From a virus, in the IMG/VR virus record IMGVR_UViG_3300029118_000008: 53,152 bases of DNA; one strand, written 5' to 3'. Below the pieces are notes generated by a model, which was not told the origin of the DNA, did no database searches, and saw nothing but the letters and a program-made list of their open reading frames with translations. Both the position numbers and the translations under genes were made by a program. This document shows, piece after piece, positions 3,238 to 50,119 of this stretch. Positions within the stretch are counted from its first letter, which is position 1. Every line of letters starts with the position of its first letter.

Positions 3238-3381
3238 ATCCAGCACCTTTCTGCGGGCATCCGCAGCATGGTCATCTTCGCGCCTTCGCAAAATTGATAG
3301 CCACGGGCAGACCATTTTCGCGGCATCACGCAAATGGTTCTCACAGCCATTTTTGCCCAACAAAAAAATCAGCAGGGGGGC

Positions 3382-3410
3382 TTGACAAGCGGGGCAATCT
3401 GGCATATAAT
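3382..3410 (+). promoter_or_regulatory. Perfect consensus promoter pointing into the 3' end of the minus-strand repressor gene (antisense)
   Basis: TTGACA at 3382-3387, N17, TATAAT at 3405-3410. The repressor CDS ends at 3497 on the opposite strand. Confidence 0.5.
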
Positions 3411-3496
3411 CATGGCATCTTGCTTCTTCGCTCTGCTCCTCTGCTGGTTCTCCTGCTTGTCCTCACGCGCTTGCCGCTCTCAGGCGTTCGGGGACA

Positions 3497-3910
3497 TCAC
3501 GGTTCGCCCTTTTCAGCATCCACCTTGTCCGCCATGCGCTTTAAGCTATCGCGTTCCCTGCGCTCCTGCCGCATCCGACGTTCCGCCTTCGCGGTGAGGT
3601 ACTCAACGTAGTTCATCGCTTCACGCACCACGTCATCCGGCGCGCCCATCAGCTTGGCGATAATCGCCTCGCAGGTTGCGTCGAGAATCGGGCGGTCAGA
3701 CGTTCCTTGCGGGTTGTCGGACAGTCCGCAAAGGTAGTCGGTTGTCACGCCGAGCGCTTCGGCGAACTTCACGATGCTGGTAATCTCCGGCGTGATGATT
3801 CCACGCTCATAGCACGAATACGTCGCTTGCGACACTCCAACGATGCTTGCCATTTCGGCTTGCGTCTTTTTTTTTGCCTTTCTCGCTTCCTTGAGCCTAT
3901 CTCCAAGCAT
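3497..3910 (-). CDS. CI-like XRE-family HTH repressor
   Basis: N-terminal LKEARKAKKKTQAEMASIVGVSQATYSCYERG HTH. C-terminal DDVVREAMNYVEYL tail shared with two paralogues. Divergent from a Cro-like gene. Confidence 0.8.
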   Translation of the reverse strand: MLGDRLKEARKAKKKTQAEMASIVGVSQATYSCYERGIITPEITSIVKFAEALGVTTDYLCGLSDNPQGTSDRPILDATCEAIIAKLMGAPDDVVREAMNYVEYLTAKAERRMRQERRERDSLKRMADKVDAEKGEP

Positions 3911-3943
3911 AAAAACACCTCAAAAATTTTTTCGCGTATTATC

Positions 3944-3972
3944 TTGACATATAAAATCGAGTGTGCTATTAT
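3944..3972 (+). promoter_or_regulatory. Early rightward promoter (TTGACA-N17-TATTAT) with the adjacent palindrome TTATTAgcattgaTAATAA
   Basis: Lies in the 92-nt divergent intergenic region between the repressor and the Cro-like gene. Confidence 0.55.
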
Positions 3973-4008
3973 TAGCATTGATAATAAGCACTGATTGGAG
4001 GGATGCGG

Positions 4009-4209
4009 ATGCAGAACCGCTTGCGTGAGTTCCGCGCAAAGAAGGGCTTGACGCAGATGCAGATTGCAGACGTGCTCAGATGTCAGCAGAGCCTTGTATC
4101 TCAGTATGAGAGGGGTGTACATACACCGTCACTGCATAACGCTATCCGCCTTGCCCGTGCGCTTGGAACGACGGTCGAAGCCCTTTTCGGGGGTGAGGTT
4201 GATGGCTGA
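4009..4209 (+). CDS. Cro-like XRE HTH protein
   Basis: LREFRAKKGLTQMQIADVLRCQQSLVSQYERG. The ATG at 4009 is 7 nt after GGAGGG. The ORF-track start at 4003 is too close to the SD. Confidence 0.75.
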   Translation: MQNRLREFRAKKGLTQMQIADVLRCQQSLVSQYERGVHTPSLHNAIRLARALGTTVEALFGGEVDG

Positions 4210-4741
4210 GAAGCTGCGGCACTTTCTCCACGTCGCCGGGGTTCGAGGAATCAGCGTCGCCGCGCTGTCCGAGAAGTCGGGCATCTCGAAGACGACTATT
4301 TACGGATACGCCAACGGACAGGGAAGCCCAACGGTTGACGCGATGAAGCTCATTGCCGAAGCCCTCGGATGCACAGTCCGAGAGGCGTTCCCGGAGGTTT
4401 ACAGCGAGAAGGTTGACGTGCCGACAGTAAACATCACGGACACGCAGCCCATCAGCACGGCAAAGCTGGCGATGCAGTACGGCATGACAACACGCGAGTT
4501 TAATCAGGCACTGTTCCGCGCTGGTATCCAGATACAGCGCGCCGATGGCACTTGGGTGGTCGCCGGGAACTTCGCCGACATGGCGACTTACAAGCCCGTC
4601 AAAACGGAGAACGGCACGGTGCGGCTGTTCGCAATGTGGACGCTGACGGCGCGAAAGGTGATTCAGTCCTTGCTGGCGGAGCAAGGGATAGTTCCGGCGG
4701 ACGGCGTGAACGTGGGGTCGTCGGATCGCCCGACGAGATAG
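4202..4741 (+). CDS. HTH + KilA-C/ANT-like antirepressor
   Basis: N-terminal HTH (ISVAALSEKSGISKTTIYGYANG). C-terminal AKLAMQYGMTTREFNQALFRAGIQIQRADGTWVV...TARK resembles the KilAC domain. The ATG overlaps the cro-like stop. Confidence 0.6.
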   Translation: MAEKLRHFLHVAGVRGISVAALSEKSGISKTTIYGYANGQGSPTVDAMKLIAEALGCTVREAFPEVYSEKVDVPTVNITDTQPISTAKLAMQYGMTTREFNQALFRAGIQIQRADGTWVVAGNFADMATYKPVKTENGTVRLFAMWTLTARKVIQSLLAEQGIVPADGVNVGSSDRPTR

Positions 4742-4905
4742 TCGAGCGACACGCCGTAGAAGTCGGCGAGGGCTATCAGGGCGGACAGAGGAATCTCACG
4801 TTCTCCGCGCTCATAGCGGCTGTAAAGCGGCTGTCCGCAGCTGATGATTCTTGCAACGTCGCTTTGCTGCAAGTGCCGTTCCAGCCGTAAGGCTTTCAGT
4901 CTCAA
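4663..4905 (-). CDS. XRE-family HTH repressor (second switch)
   Basis: LKALRLERHLQQSDVARIISCGQPLYSRYERGEREIP...LDYLVGRSDDP. Confidence 0.75.
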   Translation of the reverse strand: MRLKALRLERHLQQSDVARIISCGQPLYSRYERGEREIPLSALIALADFYGVSLDYLVGRSDDPTFTPSAGTIPCSASKD

Positions 4906-4936
4906 AAAAAATCACCTCAAAAGGCAATATGCCCTA

Positions 4937-4965
4937 TTGACATATATGCCAAATTGACATATAAT
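4937..4965 (+). promoter_or_regulatory. Perfect consensus promoter containing the direct repeat TTGACATATA x2
   Basis: TTGACA at 4937-4942, N17, TATAAT at 4960-4965. A second TTGACATATA starts at 4954. Confidence 0.55.
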
Positions 4966-4994
4966 ATAGTTACCAGCGCAGAGGGGGGCAAGAA

Positions 4995-5195
4995 ATGAGC
5001 AAGCTGGTCGATGCGCTTAATGCGCGCGGATGGACACAGAAGGAGCTTTCGCAGAGAACCGGCATCAGGCAAGACACGCTTTGCAAGTACGCTTCCGGTA
5101 AAAATACCCCCAGCGTTCTGGTAGCGATTCGTATCGCCGACGCGCTGGGGGTAGAAGACATCAGGGCGCTATTCTCAGGTAGCGGTAATCTTTGA
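4995..5195 (+). CDS. Cro-like XRE HTH protein (second switch)
   Basis: LNARGWTQKELSQRTGIRQDTLCKYASGKNTPSVLVAIRIADALGV. Confidence 0.75.
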   Translation: MSKLVDALNARGWTQKELSQRTGIRQDTLCKYASGKNTPSVLVAIRIADALGVEDIRALFSGSGNL

Positions 5196-5997
5196 CATAA
5201 TATTGCGCGTACCTTGAAGAATGCGAAAACTGGACGCAAGCGTAAACGTCAGAATCGCCATAAAGCCAGAGCGTGACGTATTTTGCGCCGGTTGCATTGG
5301 CGATTTCGCGGCAGTCGATAACATAGCGGTCTGGTGCGGACGGACAAGAAGCATTCGGATTATAGTTGTCCAGCATCTTCCTGCAGTATTCGCCGGACAC
5401 GCTAATGTCGATACTCGGCTTGTCGTAGGGTTCGATGGATGAAATGGAAATCGAAAGCAGATTGACGTTATCGCCGCTGAACTTATCAACGATGTACTGC
5501 AAGTCCTCTTCGGAGTATCGTTCATCTGCAACCCAGTACGAAGTTTGCGCATTCGACGCAAATCGACCGTTGACCTGATGCGGCGTTCCGCCCTTGGAAG
5601 AAAACGCACAATACGCGCCGGAGGACGCGATAGCACTGTGGAAGTACGTTAAGCGCAAGTAGTAGCTGTCACTGCCGACAGAGGTGCGCATAAGCGAATC
5701 GACGGACGAAAACAGCTCGAAAATGTGAGCAAGAAGCTCCTGATATTCTGGCGAATAACTCTTGTAGAGCGATTCCAGAAGCATATATTCGCCCTTGATA
5801 ACAAAGCAGTTCGTTTCCGTGTCGAGCGAAACGTCGTAGGAAATGCCATCTTCTGGTTTGCTTGAGAAGAACTCATTGATAAAGTGCAAGGCAAGCATTT
5901 CGCCGTCGGTGAGGTCGCGTTTCTCGGTCGCAAGGGCGGGGGCAATGGAGAGTGTAAGGCAGCAAAGAACAAGCAGGACGGAAACAAACTTCTTCAT
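5161..5997 (-). CDS. Secreted protein of unknown function (moron in the lysogeny region)
   Basis: N-terminal signal peptide MKKFVSVLLVLCCLTLSIAPALA|TEK. No catalytic motif recognised. Confidence 0.65.
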   Translation of the reverse strand: MKKFVSVLLVLCCLTLSIAPALATEKRDLTDGEMLALHFINEFFSSKPEDGISYDVSLDTETNCFVIKGEYMLLESLYKSYSPEYQELLAHIFELFSSVDSLMRTSVGSDSYYLRLTYFHSAIASSGAYCAFSSKGGTPHQVNGRFASNAQTSYWVADERYSEEDLQYIVDKFSGDNVNLLSISISSIEPYDKPSIDISVSGEYCRKMLDNYNPNASCPSAPDRYVIDCREIANATGAKYVTLWLYGDSDVYACVQFSHSSRYAQYYVKDYRYLRIAP

Positions 5998-6622: not shown

Positions 6623-6841
6623 TCATTCCTGATTTTGAGGGAGGACGATTTCGCCGTGCTTGTCCTCATAGTCCGCGATATGCTGACGCATTAGCATCTC
6701 CAATTCGCGGTTGACGGTTCGCAGGTTTTTTTTCGCAACCACGCGGAACTTGTCAAGCGTCTGCTTGTCGGTGCGGAGCGTAAACTTCGGGAGGTCGGAC
6801 GGCAAGGGAATCACCACCTTCAAAAAAATTTCGGTCAGCAC
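6623..6841 (-). CDS. Ribbon-helix-helix (Arc/CopG-like) DNA-binding protein
   Basis: KFTLRTDKQTLDKFRVVAKKNLRTVNRELEMLMRQHI fits a beta-strand plus two-helix RHH pattern. The real start is probably the TTG at 6805, after AAGGTGG. Confidence 0.6.
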   Translation of the reverse strand: MLTEIFLKVVIPLPSDLPKFTLRTDKQTLDKFRVVAKKNLRTVNRELEMLMRQHIADYEDKHGEIVLPQNQE

Positions 6842-7918: not shown

Positions 7919-7947
7919 TTGACATCAACGTAAAGTTGATGTATAAT
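7919..7947 (+). promoter_or_regulatory. Perfect consensus promoter with the palindrome CATCAAC-N5-GTTGATG in the spacer
   Basis: TTGACA at 7919-7924, N17, TATAAT at 7942-7947. The inverted repeat spans 7923-7941. Confidence 0.6.
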
Positions 7948-15297: not shown

Positions 15298-16605
15298 ATG
15301 GACGCATACATCAACGAGGACGCGGAAAAGAGCCTGATTGGGCTTGCAATGCAAGACGCAATCGTGGCGCAGGAAGTTGCCGCACTGCCTGATGCACTCT
15401 TTGGCTTAAAGCAGATGCAAGCCTGTCAGCGCGGAATCATGCGACTTGTGAAGCAGGGGAAAAACGTTGACCTTGTGACGCTGGATGCAGAAGTGCAATG
15501 CGACTTCCAAGATACCGCACTCTTGATGCAATGCGTTCAAATGGGCATTTCACCCATCATGTCGCGGCAGTACATAGCGATTTTGGCGGAGTGCGCGAAA
15601 CGCCGCGAACTTGCGACGCTGGCGCGAAAAATCCTGCAAGATGTAGGAAATCCGGGCGTGTCGGTTGCAGCGCTGCAAGCGGATTGCGCGGCGGCGGCAC
15701 AGTCGTCAACCGCTGGCAACGACGGGGTGACGATGCACGAAGCGTCGCTCATGCTTGCGAATTCTTTCGACAAGAAAGATGGCGTGACATGCGGAATCGC
15801 AGACCTTGACGTAATGCTGGGCGGCTTCAAGCCGGGACAGCTAATCTACATCGGCGCACGTCCGGGTGTCGGCAAAACGTCGCTGGCTATCTGCATGGCG
15901 AAGTACGTTGCGGAGCACGGCGGCGGGGTGCTGCTTGTGTCGCTGGAAATGAACCCGGTTGAAATTGCGGCGCGTTTCATGGCGAACGAATCAGGCGTGG
16001 ACTTGCAGAAAATCTCCACAGGCAAGATGGAATTAGAGGATTTCGCGCAGATTTCGCCCTGCTATCAGGTGCTTGCAGATTTACCAGTCACCATCGAGGA
16101 AAGAGCGGTCACGCCATTGCAAATACGCAACGCGGCAGCGAAGATGAAGGCAAGCAAGCAGGGATTGAGCCTGATTGTGGTTGATTATATCCAACTCATG
16201 CGAGCCGACGAGAAATGCGGAAACCGCACGGAGGAGGTGACGCAAATCAGCCGCGAATTGAAGCTGATGGCGATGGATTTAGGCGTTCCGCTGTTGTGCA
16301 TGACGCAGTTCAACCGCGAGAGTGAGAAGGGATTCGGCAAATCGACAAGAAGCGAGCCGGATATGTCACAAGCGCGAGACAGCGGCGCGATTGAGCAGGA
16401 CGCGAACGTGTTTCTCATCCTACACGAGCCAGAAGAACCGCAGGACGCGAACAGCGACAGATGGCAGATGTACCACAATTGCCAAGCGAACGGGTTGACG
16501 TGGCAAACGTGCCGAATCAGGAAGAATCGAAACGGCGCAACGGGGCTTGTGCATCTGGGCTTCGACAAGCCGCACATGCGGTATACTTGCCTAAAAAAGG
16601 ACTAA
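15298..16605 (+). CDS. dnaB: Replicative DnaB-family helicase
   Basis: Walker A GARPGVGKTSLAICMA. DnaB C-terminal motifs LIVVDYIQLM, SRELKLMAMDLGVPLLCMTQFNRE and RDSGAIEQDANV. Confidence 0.9.
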   Translation: MDAYINEDAEKSLIGLAMQDAIVAQEVAALPDALFGLKQMQACQRGIMRLVKQGKNVDLVTLDAEVQCDFQDTALLMQCVQMGISPIMSRQYIAILAECAKRRELATLARKILQDVGNPGVSVAALQADCAAAAQSSTAGNDGVTMHEASLMLANSFDKKDGVTCGIADLDVMLGGFKPGQLIYIGARPGVGKTSLAICMAKYVAEHGGGVLLVSLEMNPVEIAARFMANESGVDLQKISTGKMELEDFAQISPCYQVLADLPVTIEERAVTPLQIRNAAAKMKASKQGLSLIVVDYIQLMRADEKCGNRTEEVTQISRELKLMAMDLGVPLLCMTQFNRESEKGFGKSTRSEPDMSQARDSGAIEQDANVFLILHEPEEPQDANSDRWQMYHNCQANGLTWQTCRIRKNRNGATGLVHLGFDKPHMRYTCLKKD

Positions 16606-18036: not shown

Positions 18037-18758
18037 CGTTAGGCAGTCTTTTTGATGGGAGCGGAGGTTTTCCTCTTGCGGGGGCGCTCTCCGGAATCCG
18101 CCCGGTCTGGGCGGCGGAGGTGGAGCCGTACCCCATTGCGGTGACGCGCTCCCGCTTTCCCATGATGCAGCACCTCGGCAGCGTGACCGAGGTGCATGGC
18201 GACAAGGTACAGCCGGTGGATGTGATTACGTTCGGAAGCCCTTGCCAAGACCTTTCTGTTGCTGGCAAGCGCGCAGGCATCCATGACGGTCAGCGCTCGA
18301 ATCTGTTTTTTGAAGCAATCCGAATTATAAAGGAAATGAGGGCAGCAACTAATGGACGGTATCCAACTTTCGCTGTTTGGGAAAACGTGCCCGGAGCCTT
18401 CTCTTCAAACCAGGGAGAGGACTTCCGATGCGTCCTCCAAGAGTTTGTTGGAATCTGCGGGAACGGCACAGTACCTCGACCTGACAAAGGCAAATGGAAA
18501 TCAGCCGGAGAGGTCGTGGGCGACGGATACAGCGTCGCGTGGCGGCAACTCGACGCGCAATACTGGGGAGTGCCCCAGCGTCGCAAGAGAATCTACCTTG
18601 TGGCAGATTTTGCAGGCGGACGCGCCGGAAAAATACTATTTGAGCGCGAGGGCCTGCAAGGGCATCCTGCGGCGTGCGGAACGACGGGGCAAGGCGCTGC
18701 CGCCGATGCTCCTGGAAGCGCTGGAGGAAGCCGTGGCATTGAATGCTGGAAACGTTAA
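18033..18758 (+). CDS. dcm: DNA (cytosine-5) methyltransferase, N-terminal catalytic part (motifs I, IV, VI, VIII)
   Basis: LFDGSGG (I), GSPCQDLS (IV), WENVPG (VI), QRRKR (VIII). After ~18660 the frame decays into A/G-rich sequence and stops at 18758. Confidence 0.8.
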   Translation: MTLGSLFDGSGGFPLAGALSGIRPVWAAEVEPYPIAVTRSRFPMMQHLGSVTEVHGDKVQPVDVITFGSPCQDLSVAGKRAGIHDGQRSNLFFEAIRIIKEMRAATNGRYPTFAVWENVPGAFSSNQGEDFRCVLQEFVGICGNGTVPRPDKGKWKSAGEVVGDGYSVAWRQLDAQYWGVPQRRKRIYLVADFAGGRAGKILFEREGLQGHPAACGTTGQGAAADAPGSAGGSRGIECWKR

Positions 18759-19509
18759 AAGCGCGCAGCAGCCGAATTGCGTCTGCTATCCGCAGGTTGC
18801 CCGGACGCTGACGGCAGAAGCGGATGCGTCCACCTGCATCGACCGTGGCCAGAACGTTGTGTGCTACGACGCATGCGGGAACGGCGACGGGGCGCACTGC
18901 CAGACGTTGACCGGTGACCACGAGAACCGCGTGACGGATTACACGGCGGTCACAGTATATCGCAGCCCGAAAATTGGAGAGTATGCCGCTGATGGCACAG
19001 CATCCACAATGGCAGCGCGAGATTTCAAAAGTCCTCGCGATTTGGTTGTCGAACATACTCCCGTCTACGGCATGGACTGCCGAAACGCCGTATTGGACGA
19101 AGAAAAAACGCACACGCTGCAAGCCAAGGCGAATGGCGAACAAAGCCTGAACTGTACGCCCAGCGTTTTGATGGACGGAAGGCCGCCGCGCAAGTACATC
19201 ATCCGCCGCCTGACGCCGCTGGAATGCTGCCGCTTGCAGGGCTTCCCCGACGGGTGGGGCGTCCCCGACCACAAGGACAGGCTGTCAGAGGAAGAGCTGG
19301 CGTTCTGGCAAGGAGTGCGCGACACTTGCTCGCTCATCGCGGGCAAACCGTCCAAGAAATACAGCGCGGAAACGCTGACCAAGTGGTATAACGCCCTGCA
19401 CACGGATAGTGCAGAGTACAAAATGTGGGGCAACGGCATCGCACTTCCATGCGCGGCGTTCGTGTTGGGCGGCGTCGCCGAAACCCTGATGGAGGAAAAG
19501 CAAAAATGA
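18352..19509 (+). CDS. dcm: DNA (cytosine-5) methyltransferase, target-recognition + C-terminal part (motifs IX, X), in the +1 frame
   Basis: PEKYYLSARACKGILRRAERRGKALP, RRLTPLECCRLQGFPDGW (IX), WGNGIALP (X). The true N-terminus is unknown: a frameshift junction or a TTG start at 18598. Confidence 0.7.
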   Translation: MDGIQLSLFGKTCPEPSLQTRERTSDASSKSLLESAGTAQYLDLTKANGNQPERSWATDTASRGGNSTRNTGECPSVARESTLWQILQADAPEKYYLSARACKGILRRAERRGKALPPMLLEALEEAVALNAGNVKSAQQPNCVCYPQVARTLTAEADASTCIDRGQNVVCYDACGNGDGAHCQTLTGDHENRVTDYTAVTVYRSPKIGEYAADGTASTMAARDFKSPRDLVVEHTPVYGMDCRNAVLDEEKTHTLQAKANGEQSLNCTPSVLMDGRPPRKYIIRRLTPLECCRLQGFPDGWGVPDHKDRLSEEELAFWQGVRDTCSLIAGKPSKKYSAETLTKWYNALHTDSAEYKMWGNGIALPCAAFVLGGVAETLMEEKQK

Positions 19510-20389: not shown

Positions 20390-20523
20390 ACGCAATGACA
20401 ATTTGCCCGGTGTGCAACGCAGTGATGAAGCTATACACTACGATTGATGTTCAGGGAGGCGCATGGGTAAAATGTACAAATCCAAAGTGCGGACTACATG
20501 GCGTTCTATTTATGCCGATGTAA
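20365..20523 (+). CDS. Small zinc-ribbon protein
   Basis: CPVCNAVMKLY...VKCTNPKCGLHG. ATG after GGAGG. Confidence 0.4.
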   Translation: MVERQEWLNAMTICPVCNAVMKLYTTIDVQGGAWVKCTNPKCGLHGVLFMPM

Positions 20524-20882
20524 TCCCGACGGAGGATGAAGAGCAGGAAGCCCTTTTCCGCTGGGCGGAGGCTCAAAGCGCAACGAAGCCGTGGCTGAAA
20601 GGGATGTTCGCCATCCCGAACGGCGGTTATCGCGCCAAAGCAACCGCCGCGAGGATGAAGCGAACCGGGACGCGTGCAGGAGTGCCGGACATCTTCCTGC
20701 CCGTCTCCAACGGTCGCGAACACGGGCTTTTTATCGAAATGAAGCGGCGCAAGGGCGGGACGGTATCGACATCGCAGAAGGTGCGCATGAAGATGCTGAC
20801 TGCCGAGGGATACCGCTGCGTTGTGGCGAAGGGATGCCAAGAAGCGATTGATGCGATTATGCGATACATGAACGGAGAGTGA
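20463..20882 (+). CDS. VRR-NUC domain nuclease
   Basis: EEQEALFRWAE...FAIPNGG...GVPDIFLPV...GLFIEMKRRKGGTVSTSQKVRMKMLTAEGYRCVVAKG. Confidence 0.8.
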   Translation: MGKMYKSKVRTTWRSIYADVIPTEDEEQEALFRWAEAQSATKPWLKGMFAIPNGGYRAKATAARMKRTGTRAGVPDIFLPVSNGREHGLFIEMKRRKGGTVSTSQKVRMKMLTAEGYRCVVAKGCQEAIDAIMRYMNGE

Positions 20883-21590: not shown

Positions 21591-21595
21591 GGCGG

Positions 21596-21625
21596 TCGCG
21601 CATCGAAAGGTGCGCGATTTTCTTT
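21596..21625 (+). terminator. Rho-independent terminator
   Basis: TCGCGCA-tcgaaagg-TGCGCGA followed by TTTTCTTT. Confidence 0.7.
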
Positions 21626-21739
21626 GCAAAAATCGCAAAAAAATGTGATTTGCCCCTTGACATATACGGTAGTATATGCTATAATAAATAGTGTCAAGGG
21701 GCGGTAAAAAAGAACCCCGGACAGAAAGAGGTAAGAAAA
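21623..21739 (+). promoter_or_regulatory. Cassette copy 1: A-tract upstream element + perfect promoter + conserved 5' leader hairpin + SD
   Basis: tttgcaaaaatcgcaaaaaaatgtgatttgcc. TTGACA at 21657-62, N17 (containing CATATAC-N4-GTATATG), TATAAT at 21680-85. Leader atagtgtcaaggggcggtaaaaaagaaccccggacagaaagaggtaag. Confidence 0.7.
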
Positions 21740-22051
21740 ATGGAAAAAACTCGTAAGTTGGACGTAGAAAGTCAGTACGACCATTTCGTTGTGGAAATCG
21801 AAGTCGTTGACGGAGTTTGCGATGGCTATCGCAGTTTTATCGCCGCTTGTGACGGCGCTTATTACGACGGAAGTTCCTATAAATACGACGGAAGTTCCTA
21901 TAAAGAAGCAAAAGCGATGTATGATAAACTCGCCAAATACGAAGACGGCATACATGGTGCCGTTATTTTGATAGCGCACAACATCGAGTGCGATGATTGG
22001 GATACGCTGGAAACAAACGAAATCAATGATGTTTGTCAGGACGAAGAATAA
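21740..22051 (+). CDS. Small acidic orphan protein with an internal YDGSSYK duplication
   Basis: 103 aa, D/E-rich, ending ...CDDWDTLETNEINDVCQDEE. First gene behind cassette copy 1. Confidence 0.6.
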   Translation: MEKTRKLDVESQYDHFVVEIEVVDGVCDGYRSFIAACDGAYYDGSSYKYDGSSYKEAKAMYDKLAKYEDGIHGAVILIAHNIECDDWDTLETNEINDVCQDEE

Positions 22052-22140
22052 CCATGCACCCGCCCGGAGGTACGAGGGCAAAAGGAGGAAATGCGCAATG
22101 CTTTGCAACCAGAAGGATTTTGTAAACCTGCGTAGACTAT

Positions 22141-22223
22141 TTGACATATACGGCAGTATATGCTATAATAATAGTGTCAGAAGGGCGGTACAAAAAAAGC
22201 CCCCGACAGAAAGAGGTAAGACA
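22141..22223 (+). promoter_or_regulatory. Cassette copy 2: perfect promoter + conserved leader
   Basis: TTGACA at 22141-46, N17 (CATATACGGCAGTATATG), TATAAT at 22164-69. Leader aatagtgtcagaagggcggtacaaaaaaagcccccgacagaaagaggtaag. Confidence 0.7.
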
Positions 22224-22649
22224 ATGACTGATAAAGCAAAAAGCGCGGCGCTGTTTGAACAGCACCGCCAAATGACCAAGGCGTGGGAAGCGCAAATGGA
22301 CGCACTCGCCAAAGAAGAAAGCATCACCGACGAGGAATACGAACAGAAGCTCATGGAGCTTTACAATCAACACAAAGAAAAAGCGGATGCGGTTTGGCTG
22401 AAAGCGTTTGCACTGCGATTTCCGAAGCGCAAGGGCTGGTTCGCGGACGTTTTCGCGCCTTCGTTCGGGATTTGCGAAAACAAGAAACTTTCGCCGAAGC
22501 AAACACAAGTGTTCATCGACTACTGCATCAGTGATGCGGATACATGGCGGAATGGCAATACGTACTGCCGGTTTGGAGACAAGCTGGTAACGCTCACTCG
22601 CCCGCGTTACGCAAATGGATGCGGGTACGTTACAATAAGGCAACTGTAA
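22224..22649 (+). CDS. Orphan protein (141 aa)
   Basis: ATG at 22224 lies 6 nt after the conserved AGAGGTAAG. The longer ORF-track reading (from 21993) would run through the promoter. Confidence 0.6.
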   Translation: MTDKAKSAALFEQHRQMTKAWEAQMDALAKEESITDEEYEQKLMELYNQHKEKADAVWLKAFALRFPKRKGWFADVFAPSFGICENKKLSPKQTQVFIDYCISDADTWRNGNTYCRFGDKLVTLTRPRYANGCGYVTIRQL

Positions 22650-22841
22650 ATGAATGGAAGGGAAAACACAGTGATGCTGACGCTGACGAAGGAAGAATAC
22701 AGAGAGCTTAAAAAGCATGGTCATCTTGAAAAAAATGGTTTCGTGTACAGCCACATTGCAACGCTGGACGGGAAAATGGTCGCAGTCTGCGAAAGAGCAA
22801 ATGATTTGGACTACATCGTAGAGGTGAAGCGTGAAAAGTAA
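22650..22841 (+). CDS. Small hypothetical protein (63 aa)
   Basis: Starts immediately after the previous stop. Confidence 0.45.
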   Translation: MNGRENTVMLTLTKEEYRELKKHGHLEKNGFVYSHIATLDGKMVAVCERANDLDYIVEVKREK

Positions 22842-22896
22842 CAGCTTGCAAAATCAACCATCATATGCTACAATATCCCCGAAAGGGGTTGTGGCA

Positions 22897-23115
22897 ATGC
22901 GTAAAGAGTATTACCAAGGGGACATTTCCGTCCGCGCGATGAAGAAGTACCGCGAAAAAGAAGGAATCAAGACGGTGCGCTTCGACGTTCGCGCTGGGAG
23001 CAAAGAGGCGCTGGAAGAAGAAGCAAAGCGCCGCGGTATCTCGGTGGCGCAGCTAATCGTTGATTCCGTAAACGCTTATGTCGGGCGTGCGATAATTACC
23101 AACAGAAAACAATAA
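22897..23115 (+). CDS. RHH-like small DNA-binding protein (Aca-like position)
   Basis: KTVRFDVRAGSKEALEEEAKRRGISVAQLIVDSVNAYV fits a strand-helix-helix pattern. It has its own TTGCAA-N17-TACAAT promoter upstream and a terminator follows. Confidence 0.45.
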   Translation: MRKEYYQGDISVRAMKKYREKEGIKTVRFDVRAGSKEALEEEAKRRGISVAQLIVDSVNAYVGRAIITNRKQ

Positions 23116-23123
23116 TAGCATGG

Positions 23124-23150
23124 GGCGCATCCGCTGGGGTGCGCCTTTTT
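23124..23150 (+). terminator. Rho-independent terminator
   Basis: GGCGCA-tccgctgggg-TGCGCC followed by TTTTT. Confidence 0.7.
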
Positions 23151-23164
23151 CGTTGCGCAAAAAG

Positions 23165-23284
23165 TTTGCAAAAATCGCAAAAAAAATGTGATTTGCCTCT
23201 TGACATATACGGCAGTATATGCTATAATAATAGTGTCAGGAGGGCGGTACAAATAAAAGCCCCCGACAGAAAGAGGTAAGAATT
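23165..23284 (+). promoter_or_regulatory. Cassette copy 3: upstream element + perfect promoter + conserved leader
   Basis: tttgcaaaaatcgcaaaaaaaatgtgatttgcc. TTGACA at 23200-05, N17, TATAAT at 23223-28. Leader aatagtgtcaggagggcggtacaaataaaagcccccgacagaaagaggtaag. Confidence 0.7.
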
Positions 23285-23494
23285 ATGAAGTTCGCGAGCA
23301 TCAAGAAGGGCATCCGCATCACCGAGGAAATGAAAAAGAAGCTGGCAGCCAATTGGTTCTGCGAAACGAAAACGTACTGCTACGAGTTGCAGTACGGGGA
23401 CGAAACGATGGATGGCGACTACGAGCGCAGCATCGTTCGCTGGAAGAAAGGCGAAGAGTACAAGCCTTCCGAAGTCGTTGCAACGCTGGCGTGA
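23285..23494 (+). CDS. Small orphan protein (69 aa)
   Basis: First gene behind cassette copy 3. Confidence 0.55.
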   Translation: MKFASIKKGIRITEEMKKKLAANWFCETKTYCYELQYGDETMDGDYERSIVRWKKGEEYKPSEVVATLA

Positions 23495-23516
23495 ACAGGA
23501 AGGAGGAGCAAGCACC

Positions 23517-23828
23517 ATGTCAAACGAAGAAATCATCGCCAAGTCCGCCATCAGCGCGGGCATCTTCTCCGAAGAGGAAGCCGCAGCCTACATCATGAAC
23601 GGGTTGCGCCTCCCGATTCACACCTTCGCCGAGTGGAAGAATCACGGGTACATGGTTAAAAAGGGCGAACACGCCGCGCTGGTCGTGAGCATCTGGAAGC
23701 CCAAGACGCGCAAGCAGAAGAAGGACGACGAAAAGAACGTTGACGCAAAGGAAGAAAATAGCGGGTTCTTCATGACGACCGCCTACTTGTTCACCAAGCA
23801 GCAGGTGGAAGCAATCAAGCCCGCATAA
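23517..23828 (+). CDS. ArdC-N-terminal-like (ssDNA-binding, anti-restriction-type) protein
   Basis: PIHTFAEWKNHGYMVKKGEHAALVVSIWK resembles the (T/W)FxQWxxxGxxVxKGEK core of the ArdC N-domain. ATG after AGGAAGGAGGAG. Confidence 0.35.
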   Translation: MSNEEIIAKSAISAGIFSEEEAAAYIMNGLRLPIHTFAEWKNHGYMVKKGEHAALVVSIWKPKTRKQKKDDEKNVDAKEENSGFFMTTAYLFTKQQVEAIKPA

Positions 23829-23838
23829 TCGCAACAAA

Positions 23839-23875
23839 ATGCCGCCTGAGAGACGCCGGAGCAATCAGGCGGCAT
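23839..23875 (+). terminator. Perfect 11-bp hairpin (weak U-tail) after the island I operon
   Basis: ATGCCGCCTGA-N15-TCAGGCGGCAT. Confidence 0.35.
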
Positions 23876-24024
23876 AATTATAAGCAAAAACAAGCAAGCC
23901 GTTAGAACACGAAATAGGCGGCATTGCTGGCAATGGCAAAGAAACAAAAACATATAGAAATAAAAAAATGAGAGTTATGAGAGTAATTTCCGTGATATAA
24001 TGTAAAATGTAAAAGCAGCAAGAA

Positions 24025-24056
24025 AGACGCAAGCAGTGATGCAAGCGTCTTTTTTG
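24025..24056 (+). terminator. Hairpin + T-run, near-identical to the terminator after the intron HEG
   Basis: AGACGC-N14-GCGTCT + TTTTT. The string gcgtcttttttgttggaag recurs at 38358-38376. Confidence 0.55.
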
Positions 24057-24169
24057 TTGGAAGAGGCGACTATGGAAGTGCTGCTCTTGCCTCTTCAGCG
24101 GCGGGATTTATGCGCGATGCGCTTTGTTGCGTTGGTGGGGACGCGACGGAAGAAGAGGAGGGAAAACCA

Positions 24170-24679
24170 TTGCTTGACTGGAACGGCATCAAAATCGTCG
24201 AAACGGATTGTATGCTGCCGATTGACCGCGTGAAACCATACGCGAGAAACGCAAAGCGGCATCCGCAGGAGCAAATCGACGAAATCAAGGCAAGCATCAA
24301 GCGGTTCGGAATGGACGACCCCATCGGCATCTGGGGCAAGGAAAACCTGATTGTAGAGGGTCACGGGCGGATGGAAGCGTGCAAGCAGCTCGGCATCCCC
24401 ACAGTGCCGTGCATTCGCCTTGACCACCTGACGAAGGAAGAGCGCAAGGCGTACACACTGGCGCACAACAAAACCAACATGGACAGCGGCTGGGACTTTA
24501 CGGCGCTCGACCAAGAGCTGGCGGAAATCGTTGATATTGACATGAGCGAGTTCGGTTTCGGTGCTTCCGTGGGGGGGCAAGAAGTCAACATTGACGAGCT
24601 GTTTGCGGCAAATGGAGAAGAGAAAAAGAAAACCAAAACTATAACATGTCCTCATTGCGGGCAAACTTTCGAGCCATAA
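24170..24679 (+). CDS. ParB/Srx N-terminal-domain protein with a C-terminal zinc ribbon (DpdB-like position)
   Basis: LPIDRVKPYARNAKRHPQEQIDEIKASIKRFGMDDPI...IVEGHGRMEACKQLG is a ParBc-type pattern. C-terminal ITCPHCGQ. TTG at 24170 after GAGGAGGG. Confidence 0.65.
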   Translation: MLDWNGIKIVETDCMLPIDRVKPYARNAKRHPQEQIDEIKASIKRFGMDDPIGIWGKENLIVEGHGRMEACKQLGIPTVPCIRLDHLTKEERKAYTLAHNKTNMDSGWDFTALDQELAEIVDIDMSEFGFGASVGGQEVNIDELFAANGEEKKKTKTITCPHCGQTFEP

Positions 24680-25518
24680 TGCGAATTTTTCTAGCTGGGG
24701 GGGTATCTGGGAATCTCAAACCGCTATGGGATGATGTTGCAGAAGGGAAAGACTTATCGGAAGCGATGAATGTTTTTTTAGCTGGGAATGCTCCTTATAG
24801 GAATGAAGGCTTATACGATACAACAATCACAACAAACCGCCCATATATTCTCGAATCGTTCTATTACGCAGATGCAACAACAGAAAAGCTCATTCCATAT
24901 TACGGCGACTTTCTATTGGACAGCGGAGCTTTCACATTTATGATGGGAAGCAAAAATTGCAAAACGTTAAAATGGAACGAATATGCTGATAAATACGCTG
25001 ACTTTATTAAGCGAAATAACGCAAAAAAGTACTTCGAGCTTGACATAGACAGCATCGTTGGATATGAGCAAGTAAAAATCCTGCGAAATCGCTTGCAAAA
25101 AACTACTGGCATTCAGCCGATACCCGTATGGCATAAAAGCCGCGGGAAAGACGAATTTTTGCGGATGGTTGACGAGTACAAGTACGTCGCACTCGGTGGA
25201 ATCGTCAGCAAAGAATGGAGCAAAGATGAACACAAATTCTTTCCGTGGTTCATCAATGAAGCGCATAAGCGCAATGCCAAAATCCACGGTTTGGGTTACA
25301 CAAGCCTCGAAGGATTGAAGAAATATCATTTTGATAGCGTAGATTCGACAGCATGGACGACTGGAAATAGATTTGGGTACATTTACAAATTTGATGGTTC
25401 GACTATGAAGAAATATGATGCTCCGCAAGGGCATAGATTAGCAGATTCACGCAAAGCCGCGCTAATTAACTTTGGCGAATGGGTGAAATTTCAAAAATAT
25501 GCGGAGGTGCATTTGTGA
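24679..25518 (+). CDS. dpdA: DpdA-family (tRNA-guanine-transglycosylase-like) DNA 7-deazaguanine transglycosylase
   Basis: FLLDSGAFTFM (TGT catalytic-Asp motif xDSGGF), YVALGGIVS (LGGL-like) and HFDSVDSTAW (FDCV-like). TAATG overlap with the ParB-like gene. Confidence 0.65.
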   Translation: MRIFLAGGVSGNLKPLWDDVAEGKDLSEAMNVFLAGNAPYRNEGLYDTTITTNRPYILESFYYADATTEKLIPYYGDFLLDSGAFTFMMGSKNCKTLKWNEYADKYADFIKRNNAKKYFELDIDSIVGYEQVKILRNRLQKTTGIQPIPVWHKSRGKDEFLRMVDEYKYVALGGIVSKEWSKDEHKFFPWFINEAHKRNAKIHGLGYTSLEGLKKYHFDSVDSTAWTTGNRFGYIYKFDGSTMKKYDAPQGHRLADSRKAALINFGEWVKFQKYAEVHL

Positions 25519-25751
25519 ATTATGAAATCGTCGGAATCATAGCCACCATTGTGGTTTTGCTTTCCTTCACAAAGACAAAATGTGAAAGAATCAGAATCGT
25601 AAATATGGTTGGTGCGGCAATATATTGCCTGTATGGGCATCTAATCAAGTCACCAAGCACGATAATCCTGAACGGTGCATTGATAGCTATACATACATTT
25701 TTTCTCGTTAAGAAAGTGAGGGAACCACATGAAAAACCACAAGACTTCTGA
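25515..25751 (+). CDS. Small 3-TM membrane protein (SemiSWEET/YgjV-like topology)
   Basis: Three hydrophobic helices in 78 aa. GTG at 25515 lies 7 nt after GGAGG and overlaps the dpdA stop (GTGA). Confidence 0.45.
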   Translation: MNYEIVGIIATIVVLLSFTKTKCERIRIVNMVGAAIYCLYGHLIKSPSTIILNGALIAIHTFFLVKKVREPHEKPQDF

Positions 25752-26373
25752 ACTCCAAACGGTTCTTACCGTTACTTTTGTTGCTTGTTTCTTGATTGCA
25801 AACATTCTTGCAGGGAAACAGTTCCAATTGCCATTCGGCATCACGATGACGGGTGCAGTAATAATCTTTCCGATGACGTATATTCTTTCGGATATATTTT
25901 CAGAGGTGTACGGTTATCGGTGGAGCAGATTAACGTGTTACATGGCATTCGGGGCAAATATCCTGATGGCTATTGTATTTGCCATTGCTATCGCGCTTCC
26001 TGCTGCGCCATTCTGGATGAACCAAGAAGGATTTTCCGCGACGTTAGGCAACGCGCCGCGAATCCTGCTTGCGTCGCTGGCGGGATATGTCGTCGGTGAT
26101 TACGCAAACGATATTGTGTTCCAGATAATGAAAAAAAAGCACGAAAACACAATTAAGGGGTTCGGCAGCAGGGCAATTCTTTCAAGCGTTATCGGTGAAC
26201 TCGCAGATAGCACAATTTTCATCCCGATTGCGTTTGCCGGAGAAATGCCTATCGAATCAATGCTTATCATGGGTGCAACACAGGTTATTCTAAAAGTCGC
26301 CTATGAAATCATCATTCTACCACTGACAAATTTTGTTGTCAAGAGGGTATCCGTGCATGAAGCAAGAGCCTGA
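25729..26373 (+). CDS. yhhQ: YhhQ/VUT-family queuosine-precursor (preQ0/preQ1) transporter
   Basis: Polytopic membrane protein. IANILAGKQF...GAVIIFPMTYILSDIFSEVYGYRWSR and ...SSVIGELADSTIFIPIAF match the DUF165/YhhQ family pattern. Confidence 0.7.
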   Translation: MKNHKTSELQTVLTVTFVACFLIANILAGKQFQLPFGITMTGAVIIFPMTYILSDIFSEVYGYRWSRLTCYMAFGANILMAIVFAIAIALPAAPFWMNQEGFSATLGNAPRILLASLAGYVVGDYANDIVFQIMKKKHENTIKGFGSRAILSSVIGELADSTIFIPIAFAGEMPIESMLIMGATQVILKVAYEIIILPLTNFVVKRVSVHEARA

Positions 26374-47520: not shown

Positions 47521-48114
47521 CTATTCTTGAGCCTGACGCTTGCACTCAACGTCAAGTTCTGGATATACCCCTGCGATTTTCGCAAGGGTTTCGCTTTTTA
47601 GGCGATGGTACAGCTCTTCCTTGCCGACAAGCCAGAACAGGTCAAGCAATTTGTCGTCATATTCACAGAGGTTATGGCGGATGAAATTAACCATCCAGCG
47701 TTCCAGCGTCTCGGTGTTCGGGGACAATATATCCACATTGCCATGCTCCAAATACCATTCTTGCTTTGCGTTCAGCGTCGCCTCTTCCAGAACGGACATA
47801 TCCCAGCGCGTAACGTGGATGGAAGCAATGAGGTCATCGGCAATAGCTTCGGCGTTCTTTCGCTTCGTTTCGACGGCTTTTGCGGACGCTGCTTTTCGTG
47901 CGGCTGCTTTTGCCGCCATCGTCTGGAACTCCTGCGTCTCCATGGCGGAACGTACATCTTCCTCGCGCCATAACTTCATGGGCGCGGCGGATGCGTAGCG
48001 CGGATTCCGTTTGAGGACGGGCGGCGGCAGCAGCTTTTCTATCATGGACTTGGTGAAGCCCATGGACAGAACTGCCGATTGCGAAATAAGCTGTTCCTTC
48101 TGCTTTTCCGGCAT
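47521..48114 (-). CDS. Hypothetical protein (197 aa)
   Basis: ATG after AAGGGGG. Last gene of a minus-strand operon. Confidence 0.55.
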   Translation of the reverse strand: MPEKQKEQLISQSAVLSMGFTKSMIEKLLPPPVLKRNPRYASAAPMKLWREEDVRSAMETQEFQTMAAKAAARKAASAKAVETKRKNAEAIADDLIASIHVTRWDMSVLEEATLNAKQEWYLEHGNVDILSPNTETLERWMVNFIRHNLCEYDDKLLDLFWLVGKEELYHRLKSETLAKIAGVYPELDVECKRQAQE

Positions 48115-48148
48115 GGTGTCCCCCTTGTGTTGACTTTATTGCAGGATG

Positions 48149-48967
48149 CTATTTTTTGTTTATTTTTAATACCTCGTCTATTGCCGCACGACTTTCGTCA
48201 GAAACCTTCTTCCCATTTTCGTAATTTCGTATTGTTCTTTCGGATAAATGCACGATTTCCGATAGCCGTGCAACGGTAAAGCCCGCTGCAATTCGCGCCT
48301 TGCTTGCTTCTGTTTTCTCTTTTCGATACTTTCTCGGCTTTTCAAGCGAACCGTGTTGCTTCTTTGCTGGCAGATTAGAGGCTTTAAGCGCCTTTGCATC
48401 CGCGCAAGCATCGGAACAATATACTCTGTGCGCTTTATTGGGCGTAAATATCTTTCCGCAAGTTGGGCATAAACGAACGCGTATTTCCGCCATCTTCTTT
48501 TGCGTCTCACCACGCGATTCTTTCCGCCTCTGATTTGTCTTCTCAGCGTTTTTTTTATAGTAATCCAGCGCGCGCTTGCGCGTTTGCTCTGCCGCGCAAT
48601 CTGGACACATTACTTGCTTTCCACTGTTTATAATATACGGTTTTCCGCAAATCTCGCAGTAGGCAGTTCCGCCGATTACACGACTTTTCCCATTTTTCTT
48701 TCGTTCTTCATACTCTTTTTTCCTTTTTTTCTTCGCCGCCACGTTGCAAGTCGGACAACGCTTTGAGCGCGGATAACCCATGTATTTTGCGCCGCAATCC
48801 TCGCAGACCTTCTCCTTTATTGTTTCGTGTATATTAAAATGCCCTTTTCCTAATAAGGCATTTGCTTCTTTTGATTCCTTCTTTTTCATCTCAATAGCGC
48901 ATTGCGGGCAGCAGAAGTACTCCTGCTGCCCGGATAATGGTTTCCCACAGTTTTCGCAAAGCCTCAC
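48149..48967 (-). CDS. Multi-zinc-ribbon protein with a C-terminal XRE-type HTH
   Basis: At least five CxxC...CxxC pairs (CENCGK..CCPQC, CEDCGA..CPTC, CEICGK..CPDC, CPTCGK..CSDAC), then FTVARLSEIVHLSERTIRNYENG. Confidence 0.6.
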   Translation of the reverse strand: MRLCENCGKPLSGQQEYFCCPQCAIEMKKKESKEANALLGKGHFNIHETIKEKVCEDCGAKYMGYPRSKRCPTCNVAAKKKRKKEYEERKKNGKSRVIGGTAYCEICGKPYIINSGKQVMCPDCAAEQTRKRALDYYKKNAEKTNQRRKESRGETQKKMAEIRVRLCPTCGKIFTPNKAHRVYCSDACADAKALKASNLPAKKQHGSLEKPRKYRKEKTEASKARIAAGFTVARLSEIVHLSERTIRNYENGKKVSDESRAAIDEVLKINKK

Positions 48968-49263
48968 TCTTTAAGCCCCCACATCTCCAGCGTATCGTCG
49001 ATATACTCGGTGTCGCTTTCGTTGCATTCCTTCCAAGGGGTTCTGGGGTCGCCGATAATCGCTTCGATTTTAGCGATTGTCTCTTCTGCCCATTTGCTAC
49101 CATCCTCTTCAAGGTCATTCAGCGCGACAGGATTCCCTTCCGTCGTGAGAATCCACTCACCATAGACGGGTTCGACACCCACATACAGCGTGTAGGTGAG
49201 ACCTTCTTCAGAGCCACAGAACTCGTAGATTTCGGTGTTCTCGTTAACAATAACCTTCTTCAT
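48964..49263 (-). CDS. Small acidic orphan protein (99 aa)
   Basis: ATG at 49263 behind cassette copy 4. By my count, 24 D/E against 7 K/R. Confidence 0.6.
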   Translation of the reverse strand: MKKVIVNENTEIYEFCGSEEGLTYTLYVGVEPVYGEWILTTEGNPVALNDLEEDGSKWAEETIAKIEAIIGDPRTPWKECNESDTEYIDDTLEMWGLKE

Positions 49264-49390
49264 AATGCTTACCTCTTTCTGTCCGGAGCTTTTATTTTGC
49301 ATCGCCCCTTGACACTATGTATTATAGCACAAGATATATACTTTGTCAATATCTTTTTGGGGTTTTCCGCAAGTTTTTTGCAACTTCCAC
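49264..49390 (-). promoter_or_regulatory. Cassette copy 4 (minus strand): upstream A-tract element + perfect promoter + conserved leader
   Basis: Read on the minus strand: gttgcaaaaaacttgcggaaaaccccaaaaagata-TTGACA(49349-44)-N17-TATAAT(49326-21)-acatagtgtcaaggggcgatgcaaaataaaagctccggacagaaagaggtaagcatt-ATG. Confidence 0.7.
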
Positions 49391-49392
49391 TC

Positions 49393-49554
49393 CTATTCCT
49401 TCCGCACTCTTTCCGCCAGCCACTCCGAGATTGCAAGCCGAATGACAGCCGAATCGTTCAGGCTTAACTTTTTTGCTACGTCCTTAATCTGCGCATTCTG
49501 CTCTTTCGTCAGAATTACGCACTTTGCAACCTTGTTACCGTTTTCACTAATCAT
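49393..49554 (-). CDS. RHH (CopG/Arc-like) protein, 53 aa (not in the ORF track)
   Basis: My translation: MISENGNKVAKCVILTKEQNAQIKDVAKKLSLNDSAVIRLAISEWLAERVRKE. ATG lies 8 nt after GGAGGAG. Confidence 0.6.
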   Translation of the reverse strand: MISENGNKVAKCVILTKEQNAQIKDVAKKLSLNDSAVIRLAISEWLAERVRKE

Positions 49555-49561
49555 CTTCTTG

Positions 49562-49993
49562 TTACTCCTCCTTTCTGGGGCTGCCGTAAATCGGCTTACA
49601 CCAATTGCCCATGCTTCCGACCACCACCTGCGGCAAGTAACCGCCTGTGGTGCGGTCGTAGTGCATCAGCGTCAGCTCAATGCCGCGATACACGCAGCCA
49701 CGGATAACCGCCGCCACGCAAGCGGTCAGTCCCGTGACGTAGACGACCAGCGGGTGATTGCCCGTTGTCACCTCGATGTCCGCGTACTCGTTGTCGTTGA
49801 ATCGAGTACCATAATTGGACAAATGTGTCCCCACACGATTGTCAAGGAACGCGTCGACCGTCCGCGACATAGCGCGGAAGTCCGTGGGGTCTACCTCCAT
49901 TTGGAAGATAAACTCGTCCACGGGCATGTCGTGCCGCCCAGCACACAGACCGACGACGACGGCATTGGAAGGAATTTGAAAAGTAAAGTCCAT
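49562..49993 (-). CDS. Orphan alpha/beta-looking protein (143 aa)
   Basis: ATG at 49993 after AGAGGA. VVVGLCAGRHDMP...LVVYVTGLTACVAAVIRG...HYDRTTGGY. No family recognised. Confidence 0.55.
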   Translation of the reverse strand: MDFTFQIPSNAVVVGLCAGRHDMPVDEFIFQMEVDPTDFRAMSRTVDAFLDNRVGTHLSNYGTRFNDNEYADIEVTTGNHPLVVYVTGLTACVAAVIRGCVYRGIELTLMHYDRTTGGYLPQVVVGSMGNWCKPIYGSPRKEE

Positions 49994-50085
49994 AATATTT
50001 CCTCTCGCTTTCTGCCCTCGTAACCTCCGGGGCGGGTGCATGGTTATTCTTCGTCCGGGGGCCTTTTTGTACACTATGTATTATA
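49994..50085 (-). promoter_or_regulatory. Cassette remnant (copy 5): -10 box and truncated leader without a -35, plus a 55-nt segment repeated at 22039-22091
   Basis: Read on the minus strand: TATAAT(50085-80)-acatagtgtacaaaaaggcccccggacgaagaataaccatgcacccgccccggaggttacgagggcagaaagcgagaggaaatatt-ATG. Confidence 0.5.
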
Positions 50086-50119
50086 GCACAAGCATTCTGC
50101 CGGGCGTGCGCCCGGAGCA

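Follow-up and report, generated by a model that had tools for sequence, protein, structure and literature searches.

In plasmid p576 of Bacillus pumilus, strong extended -10 promoters drive ardC together with small genes, and the ribbon-helix-helix (RHH) protein Reg576 represses these promoters and itself, with a burst of expression after DNA entry; structures in the p576 leaders raise transcript levels (PMC6294495). The gene content of p576-related plasmids is variable apart from ardC and reg, which alone are conserved (PMC8708921). Aca14 of Pasteurella multocida is an RHH anti-CRISPR-associated (Aca) protein that represses its own and a neighbouring operon via an AT-rich inverted repeat at the promoter, and RHH and helix-turn-helix (HTH) regulators substitute for each other in anti-CRISPR (acr)-aca operons (bioRxiv 10.64898/2026.07.27.740549). 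The PeSL elements of T4-type phages, repeated composite terminator and early-promoter motifs that flank variable orphan open reading frames (ORFs) of hyperplastic regions, shuffle genes by homologous recombination (PMC2839356; PMC4122927), and in archaeal viruses numerous small early genes are preceded by a conserved strong-promoter motif; an anti-defence function was demonstrated for some, and Aca-like regulators are associated with them (PMC11065993). The present study analyzes a locus with features of these systems, Island I (21594-24112, + strand), in a 53,152-nt stretch of DNA taken as one strand (IMG/VR record IMGVR_UViG_3300029118_000008; hereafter the window), which is a temperate tailed-phage genome with integrase, CI-like repressor, DnaB-like helicase, large terminase subunit (TerL), portal, major head, and tape-measure genes. 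The island holds three near-identical regulatory units of about 90 nt and six small genes, P1 to P6. On balance the patterns detected favor a self-regulated, hypervariable accessory locus of the counter-defence or “establishment” regulon type, that is, a known type of locus in a new form and not a new category.

Each regulatory unit is made of a TTGACA-17-TGnTATAAT promoter, which fits the sigma-70/sigma-A consensus at 12 of 12 positions and adds the extended -10 TG, a conserved leader, and a strong ribosome-binding site (RBS). The units take the form of direct repeats, 64 nt and 37 nt long, with 75–100% identity, and the promoter 29-mer occurs three times in the window against 0.00 expected from shuffles; perfect consensus promoters in the window number ten overall. 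The left border of the island is an intrinsic terminator with an 11-bp stem and a T-run (21594-21619, +), which ends the preceding operon of VRR-NUC, 93-aa, and DUF1492 genes and whose sequence is kept 5′ of the first cassette in all relatives. It is followed by an A-rich, UP-element-like tract, TTTGCAAAAATCGCAAAAAAATGTGATTTGCC (21620-21656, +), 5′ of the -35 of the first cassette, with a second copy at 23162-23199 and none before the second cassette. The three promoters (21657-21685, 22141-22169, and 23200-23228, all +) each carry a 7-bp dyad, CATATAC-N4-GTATATG, between -35 and -10 (the first dyad at 21661-21678 with the loop GGTA, the second at 22145-22162 with GGCA, and the third at 23204-23221), and no other copy of it occurs in the window. 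A variant promoter keeps the symmetry through changes in both dyad arms (CATATTGCC|GGGAATATG). The idea that this dyad is the operator of the main immunity repressor was dropped, given that extra copies are missing from the window. The three leaders (21686-21739, 22170-22223, and 23229-23284, +) have a predicted hairpin and a Shine-Dalgarno sequence; in the first, the 5′ hairpin is TGTCA..GGGG / CCCC.GACA and the Shine-Dalgarno AAAGAGGT, with a folding energy (dG) of -10.1 and z of -2.2, and in the third dG is -13.2 and z -3.3. The P2-P3-P4 operon is closed by an intrinsic terminator (23122-23147, +) that relatives keep before their last promoter, and ahead of P4 lies a weak internal promoter-like site, TTGCAA-17-TACAAT with TG (22846-22874, +), seen only where P3 or the family F46 precedes the RHH gene.

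A sequence-only reading of this DNA had described short orphan genes behind very strong promoters, and all of these are present between 21740 and 23828 on the + strand. P1 (21740-22051, 103 aa), a single-gene cassette without its own regulator, is indeed an acidic orphan with a net charge of -16 and an isoelectric point (pI) of 4.2, but it is the sole acidic protein in the island (P2 to P6 have pI 6.8-10), so that the “small acidic proteins” of that reading shrink to one. Its G+C of 43%, with 45% at third codon positions, is below that of the genome (~54%), and it contains a perfect in-frame 21-nt tandem duplication (21863-21904, YDGSSYK twice), single-copy in a homologue (P0100) from another phage group. 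P2 (22224-22649, 141 aa) belongs to a family of 45 representative clusters at 50% identity, among them P0104-P0147, all of 140-155 aa and with the conserved motifs FALxFPxxRNxWF, ISxKQ, and YCRVG; its AlphaFold2 (AF2) model, with a mean confidence (pLDDT) of 96.4, has a long helical hairpin and a small alpha/beta domain. P3 had been taken as 63 aa from 22650 (22650-22841), a reading not common to relatives, which use an internal Met at 22674, giving 55 aa (22674-22841); its orphan status, like that of the 141-aa and 69-aa proteins, stands, there being no family matches. P3 accompanies the RHH gene behind differing cargo. A guess from its sequence pattern that P3 is a HicA-like toxin had no family support and was rejected. 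P4 (22897-23115, 72 aa) is the last gene of the cargo operon, P5 (23285-23494) is a 69-aa orphan that in some relatives is swapped for the unrelated F15 or missing, and P6 (23517-23828, 103 aa) is a stand-alone ArdC-N-like (DUF1738/beta-hairpin) putative single-stranded DNA (ssDNA)-binding protein. The possibility that the cargo consists of defence systems was likewise dropped, with no Island I protein matching PADLOC models.

When IMG/VR was scanned for exact copies of the promoter 29-mer, 30 phage contigs were obtained, and in all 30 the island lies directly 3′ of the DUF1492 gene. The layout in these relatives is a promoter, variable cargo, and the RHH gene, then a second promoter followed by P5, F15, or nothing, and P6. 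Seven cargo sets were found before the RHH gene (P2+P3; F27+P2+P3; F18+F13; F20; F12+F11+P3; F32+F11+P3; F46), and P1 is present in only one of 31 genomes. Against this turnover the RHH gene occurs in every locus that covers its position and is always last in its operon, and P6 is lacking in only two complete loci (L015, L029). Where F13 or F20 comes before it, the RHH gene follows directly with a Shine-Dalgarno sequence. Because this layout is that of known counter-defence loci, the orphan genes are good, if unproven, candidates for inhibitors of immunity.

The same association was found beyond the close relatives. In another phage group, with genomes of ~40 kb, a P1 homologue with 74% identity comes right after a 62-aa RHH_1 gene, both behind a terminator and a TTGACA-17-TGATACAAT promoter, and in L049-L053 the RHH gene overlaps the start of a P1-like gene. 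A narrower P2 alignment led to one distant locus, L073, in an unrelated 55-kb phage, where 3256-5677, right after the endolysin and holin genes, holds a terminator, a promoter, and then C15-like, P2-like (46%), and C7/F20-like genes, the 3′ end of the operon being formed by a 71-aa acidic protein and an XRE HTH gene. Thus the operons in which related cargo travels have a strong promoter and, as their last gene, one for a small DNA-binding protein, whether RHH or HTH.

The window has a second island of this kind, Island II (47521-50583, - strand), with two perfect promoters (50555-50583 and 49321-49349) whose leader is that of Island I and whose spacer carries a different dyad, ACAAG-N8-CTTGT, perfect as CAAGTTGCGCAACTTG in relatives. 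It encodes orphans of 125 aa (acidic), 143 aa, 53 aa (RHH-like, 49393-49554), 99 aa (acidic), 272 aa (with Zn-ribbons and an XRE HTH), and 197 aa, and is as variable in relatives as Island I. Its small terminal protein reached E 0.05 as an RHH for one family member only and is best called RHH-like by pattern. Of the 77 cassettes recovered by a leader-based search, 57 belong to type I and 20 to type II, counts that are not phylogenetically independent. Promoter and regulator pair by island: type-I promoters occur with the 72-aa RHH protein 22:0, and type-II promoters with a 53-57-aa terminal protein 9:0. Cargo is less faithful, with the families C7 and P1 in both islands. Between 21677, a position within the -10, and 22065, 14 nt beyond the stop codon, the P1 cassette of the window has 97% identity with an Island-II-type cassette of L034, and the 50 nt that come next match the window’s own Island II. 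Since the junction is inside the -10, cargo moves by recombination within the shared unit. In this the islands resemble PeSL elements: repeated terminator-promoter units surround variable ORFs, and recombination takes place within such units, as at the junction between the P1 cassette and L034, with the differences that the units here add a conserved leader, an RBS, an operator-like dyad, and a dedicated regulator gene, and that the phage is a temperate siphovirus type and not T4-type.

A broader proposal can be built on these data, and we hold it tentatively, as somewhat doubtful in its full extent: that the two islands of gut Clostridia phages form a counter-defence cargo-exchange system in which the leader would serve as a universal homology arm, that two orthogonal operator/regulator pairs would keep control of the two islands separate, that the ~25 orphan families, P1, the P2 family, and the acidic proteins of Island II included, may each be new immune inhibitors, and that the RHH protein may read its dyad via the N-terminal helix, as modelled for Aca14.

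The neighborhood of the island is also relevant. On the 5′ side are VRR-NUC (20463-20882), a 93-aa gene, and the DUF1492/sigma-r4-like gene, and on the 3′ side the ParB-like through terminase genes, in agreement with the earlier placement of the island at an early/late boundary. Directly 3′ are a ParB_N-like gene (24110-24679), a DpdA-like gene (24646-25518; phrog_887 “queuine tRNA-ribosyltransferase”, E 3.8e-55), and a YhhQ/Vut_1 transporter (25729-26373, E 1.4e-40), which we take together to be a 7-deazaguanine DNA-modification set. Relatives have in this slot a C5 methylase with Methyltransf_11, a ParB-methyltransferase, other methyltransferases, or a PAPS reductase. Modification genes thus lie 3′ of the island in the window and in relatives, so that Island I adjoins genes that protect phage DNA from restriction. 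Elsewhere, within the replication module, there is a DNA-methyltransferase-like gene (18352-19509; several PHROGs methyltransferase families, E down to 2e-14) that, judged by its sequence, is a second putative DNA-modification function of the genome.

Compared with the regulon of Reg576, in p576 and the clade II pLS20-family plasmids, Island I has the same use of several strong sigma-A extended -10 promoters with a common regulatory sequence in separate operons, an ardC-type gene within the regulon (here P6, behind the third promoter), leaders with RNA structure, predicted here and raising transcript levels in p576, and retention of the ardC-type and RHH genes across relatives while small genes of other kinds vary. 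The proposed logic would also be shared, namely a burst upon entry of naked DNA, then shut-off by a small RHH repressor. The systems differ in that the plasmids are conjugative and transfer ssDNA, whereas the window is a temperate tailed phage; that the operator of Reg576 consists of dual direct heptamers (TTATCCC) flanking the promoter, whereas here the candidate is a dyad within the spacer; that Reg576 has a C-terminal third helix and P4 an N-terminal extension; and that cassettes here have almost the same promoter/leader unit, which recurs in a second island. Compared with acr-Aca14 loci, likenesses are a small DNA-binding gene at the 3′ end of an operon with small variable genes upstream (P4 is last in 22 type-I cassettes), an AT-rich inverted repeat that overlaps the core promoter and is also on neighboring operons, an RHH core with an N-terminal extension of ~25 aa (Aca14 has 67 aa, P4 72 aa), a swap of HTH and RHH behind related cargo (L073 versus the window), and restriction-modification or DNA-modification genes nearby. 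In contrast to those loci, the window has no known Acr, and its host is probably a Gram-positive gut anaerobe and not a Proteobacterium. The Aca14 operator, TGTATATG-TAAG-CATATACA, has the heptamers of the window dyad in swapped order, a resemblance that may or may not be meaningful. The anti-defence genes of archaeal viruses resemble the island in the conserved strong-promoter motif ahead of small genes and differ in domain of life, promoter type, and proteins. The acr-aca-type architecture that had been suggested for this DNA is therefore borne out in its variable cargo, terminal RHH gene, spacer dyads, and modification neighbors, but not in the cargo itself, none of which resembles a known anti-defence family.

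P4 consists of an N-terminal extension of ~25 aa and then a strand-helix-helix. That the middle operon ends in an RHH-like protein had been proposed, and its terminal position holds in all relatives that cover it, although the match to Pfam RHH_1 (E 0.007, 16.7 bits) is under the cut-off of 20.5. Other weak matches are in the same register (phrog_3887, E 5.7e-5; VapB26 in the PDB, E 0.033; an NCBIfam LexA-regulated protein, E 0.0012), with BrnA at E 0.013, and by sequence comparison P4 appears RHH-like, below threshold yet consistently across libraries. Against Aca14 the hhalign probability was 45% (E 2.2e-4, 31% identity over 35 columns in register; BLASTP E 0.003). In the control comparison Aca14 scored higher with CopG, and a P4 variant had no in-register match to Aca14. 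Among P4 homologues the RHH protein occurs as two alleles, told apart by little more than the predicted DNA-reading strand (EGIKTVRFDVR versus IGMQKITIEVQ); P0017 is a mosaic of both, and L001 and L022 have two RHH cassettes in tandem.

P6, which contains HTFAEWKNHGYMVKKGEHA, scores 30.1 bits against Pfam ArdcN (cut-off 22.6), which upholds the earlier recognition of an ArdC-N-like motif and also qualifies the statement that no protein of the island falls in a nameable family, true for P1, P2, P3, and P5 but not for P6. Further matches are to Rad4 BHD_2 (E 1.5e-4) and phrog_25027 (E 2.4e-19). Its homologues are stand-alone proteins of ~100 aa labelled DUF1738 or ArdC at source; P6 shares 41% identity with a 116-aa “ArdC family protein” whose gene has small orphans as neighbors on a plasmid of Bacillus altitudinis, and homologues were also seen in cultured phages that infect Lactobacillus delbrueckii, Butyrivibrio, and Faecalibacterium. 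In the virulent Lactobacillus delbrueckii phage LL-Ku the homologue is its own annotated terminator-promoter-gene-terminator unit. The likeness to ArdC of IncW/IncN plasmids (PF08401) is in the ssDNA-binding N-terminal domain, with BHD_2 in addition.

A cassette is made up of a terminator, an A-rich tract, a perfect promoter with a spacer dyad, a conserved leader with RBS, and swappable small proteins. On entry of naked phage DNA the three promoters would fire at full strength, because no repressor protein arrives with the DNA, and the cargo (P1, P2, possibly P3, and P5) together with P6 would act at an early stage, with host restriction or other immunity as the most plausible target. P4, co-transcribed last, would accumulate, bind the dyad in all type-I promoters and shut the regulon down, as do Reg576 and the Aca proteins including Aca14; P4 is proposed as the autorepressor of type-I promoters. 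The shared promoter/leader units would serve as homology arms for cargo exchange between phages and between Islands I and II.

Several results weigh against this interpretation. P1, P2, P3, and P5 have no match in Pfam, PHROGs, NCBIfam, or PADLOC, more than 20 cargo families from relatives have none in Pfam, PHROGs, or NCBIfam, and in these three libraries the cargo shows no sequence resemblance to validated anti-defence proteins. Structure prediction with Foldseek comparison, the check first proposed for these proteins, produced models for P2 and P6 (pLDDT 75) but no significant structural match for either, with none for P2 in the PDB or BFVD and, for P6 in the PDB, a top match to the Rad4 beta-hairpin domain (BHD) at E 1.6; searches of PDB sequences with the P2 profile, P6, and the P6 profile gave weak matches only. 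P6 covers only positions 68-121 of the 123 in the ArdcN model, that is, the C-terminal half, and ends past the beta-hairpin region without the zinc metalloprotease domain of ArdC, so the 103-aa protein differs from ArdC in both respects. For P4, the RHH_1 score is below cut-off as given above, a search of its profile against all PDB chain sequences (E up to 10) had VapB26 as the best match and did not return Reg576, and membership in Aca14 was rejected, the similarity being no better than that of a generic RHH. No covariation was seen within type I between the two beta-strand variants of the RHH protein and the two variants of the dyad. The leader hairpin stands on folding energy alone, because 20 distinct leaders had 0 compensatory pairs and gave no covariation support. 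The same promoter with its dyad occurs in three unrelated loci of metagenome-assembled genomes (MAGs) without any island protein, for which reason the dyad may be generic or bound by another factor. Finally, the LL-Ku homologue of P6 has recombination genes (Holliday-junction resolvase) on one side and replication genes on the other, a placement that fits a DNA-metabolism role equally with an anti-restriction role, and the phage of the window is temperate, so that expression from the prophage is possible.

The MAG copies themselves (L031 4304-4332; L032 4909-4937, -; L033 2108-2136, -) are from Ruminococcus, Oscillospiraceae, and Clostridiales MAGs; one stands before a long leader and a TrpB-like gene, and two, behind a terminator and a TTTTTCAAAAAACTA tract, drive small ORFs.

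The strongest alternative, although we consider it unlikely, is that these are morons in the classical sense: the resident prophage would express the cassettes as autonomous promoter-gene-terminator units, and the lysogen would gain from superinfection exclusion, from small proteins that defend it against other phages, or from fitness factors, with the RHH protein merely setting a steady-state level. The phage is temperate (integrase 1096-2253, CI-like repressor 3497-3910), terminators delimit each unit, which is served by a constitutive-type promoter of its own, and the island dyad is missing from the immunity region, for which reason the main repressor would not silence the island. Hypervariable cargo at fixed hot-spots is typical of prophage-encoded defence as well, and in L073 these cargo families follow the lysis cassette, where morons are commonly found. 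On the other hand, no cargo matches PADLOC defence models, the proteins, small and soluble, bear neither an enzymatic nor a membrane signature, and homologues of P6 occur as similar units in virulent Lactobacillus delbrueckii phages. Moreover, the adjoining genes protect the phage’s own DNA, and an autorepressor on a maximal promoter is a design for burst and shut-off, as in the studied analogues.

An improbable further explanation is that the island encodes early helpers of host takeover or DNA metabolism unrelated to immunity, with cargo that inhibits or modulates host processes, P6 as an accessory of replication or recombination acting on ssDNA or distorted DNA, and the RHH protein as a temporal regulator of early genes. 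The island does come after the replication/recombination genes (DnaB-like helicase 15298-16605, and VRR-NUC), the LL-Ku homologue is placed between the Holliday-junction resolvase and replication genes, and in Faecalibacterium phage Toutatis an ArdC-N-like region is inside a 313-aa protein near the primase; ArdC-N/DUF1738 domains are also found in primase-type proteins. However, wholesale replacement of core replication helpers among close relatives is not normal, and here one slot takes seven cargo sets and P1 occurs in just one of 31 genomes, while the flanking DNA-modification genes point to conflict with host restriction. Toxin-antitoxin or addiction modules made of the RHH protein and a neighbor (P3-P4, or RHH and P1-like elsewhere) are hardly credible, for although the best PDB and NCBIfam matches of P4 are to the RHH antitoxins VapB26 and BrnA, P3 and the RHH gene travel together, and the RHH gene overlaps the P1-like gene start in L049-L053, neither P3 nor P1 matches a toxin family, P1 is strongly acidic, the RHH gene is also directly behind the unrelated F13, F20, and F46 and so has no constant partner, and its matches are all weak and generic.

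Some further features of the window deserve description. Island I is closed by a 284-nt conserved non-coding region (23829-24112, +) with 89-98% identity in nearly all relatives regardless of what comes next, containing a 10-bp stem-loop (23840-23874), an extended -10 element, TGATATAAT (~23993-24001), and ~25 nt past it a terminator hairpin with a U-run (24016-24058; dG -25.7, z -6.1). This is probably the control region of the late operon, and could be a late promoter under antitermination control or encode a ~55-nt small RNA; it has no Rfam match, and no Rfam family was matched in 20-26 kb. The lysogeny/early region has five more 12/12 consensus promoters on the + strand, at 764, 3382, 4937, 6843, and 7919. 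The promoter at 7919 has a dyad, CATCAAC-GTAAA-GTTGATG, in or near its spacer, and in or around the spacers of those at 6843 and 4937 are two copies each of GGTGACGGCAC and TTGACATATA, respectively. Between 3.5 and 8.6 kb there are unusually many XRE-type HTH genes and an Arc-like gene (6623-6841; Pfam Arc, E 9e-5). GenBank phages have no DNA similarity to the window, and the nearest cultured relatives of its TerL are in Enterococcus and Lactococcus phages at ~48% identity.

To our knowledge very few anti-defence proteins have been described for phages of strictly anaerobic gut Firmicutes, where homology-based searches fail because the inhibitors are orphans. The promoter 29-mer with its ~55-nt leader is a homology-free handle that has already yielded 77 cassettes and ~25 orphan families from public viromes, and it also points to two candidate regulator/operator pairs. 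Should the cargo not consist of inhibitors, the islands would still be a clear case of gene shuffling by regulatory cassettes outside the T4 group. If the counter-defence interpretation of Island I is true, the cargo families would be a ready screening list against the defence systems of gut bacteria, and the combination of an RHH-type “Aca” with the logic of the plasmid establishment regulon would extend to temperate phages of another phylum.

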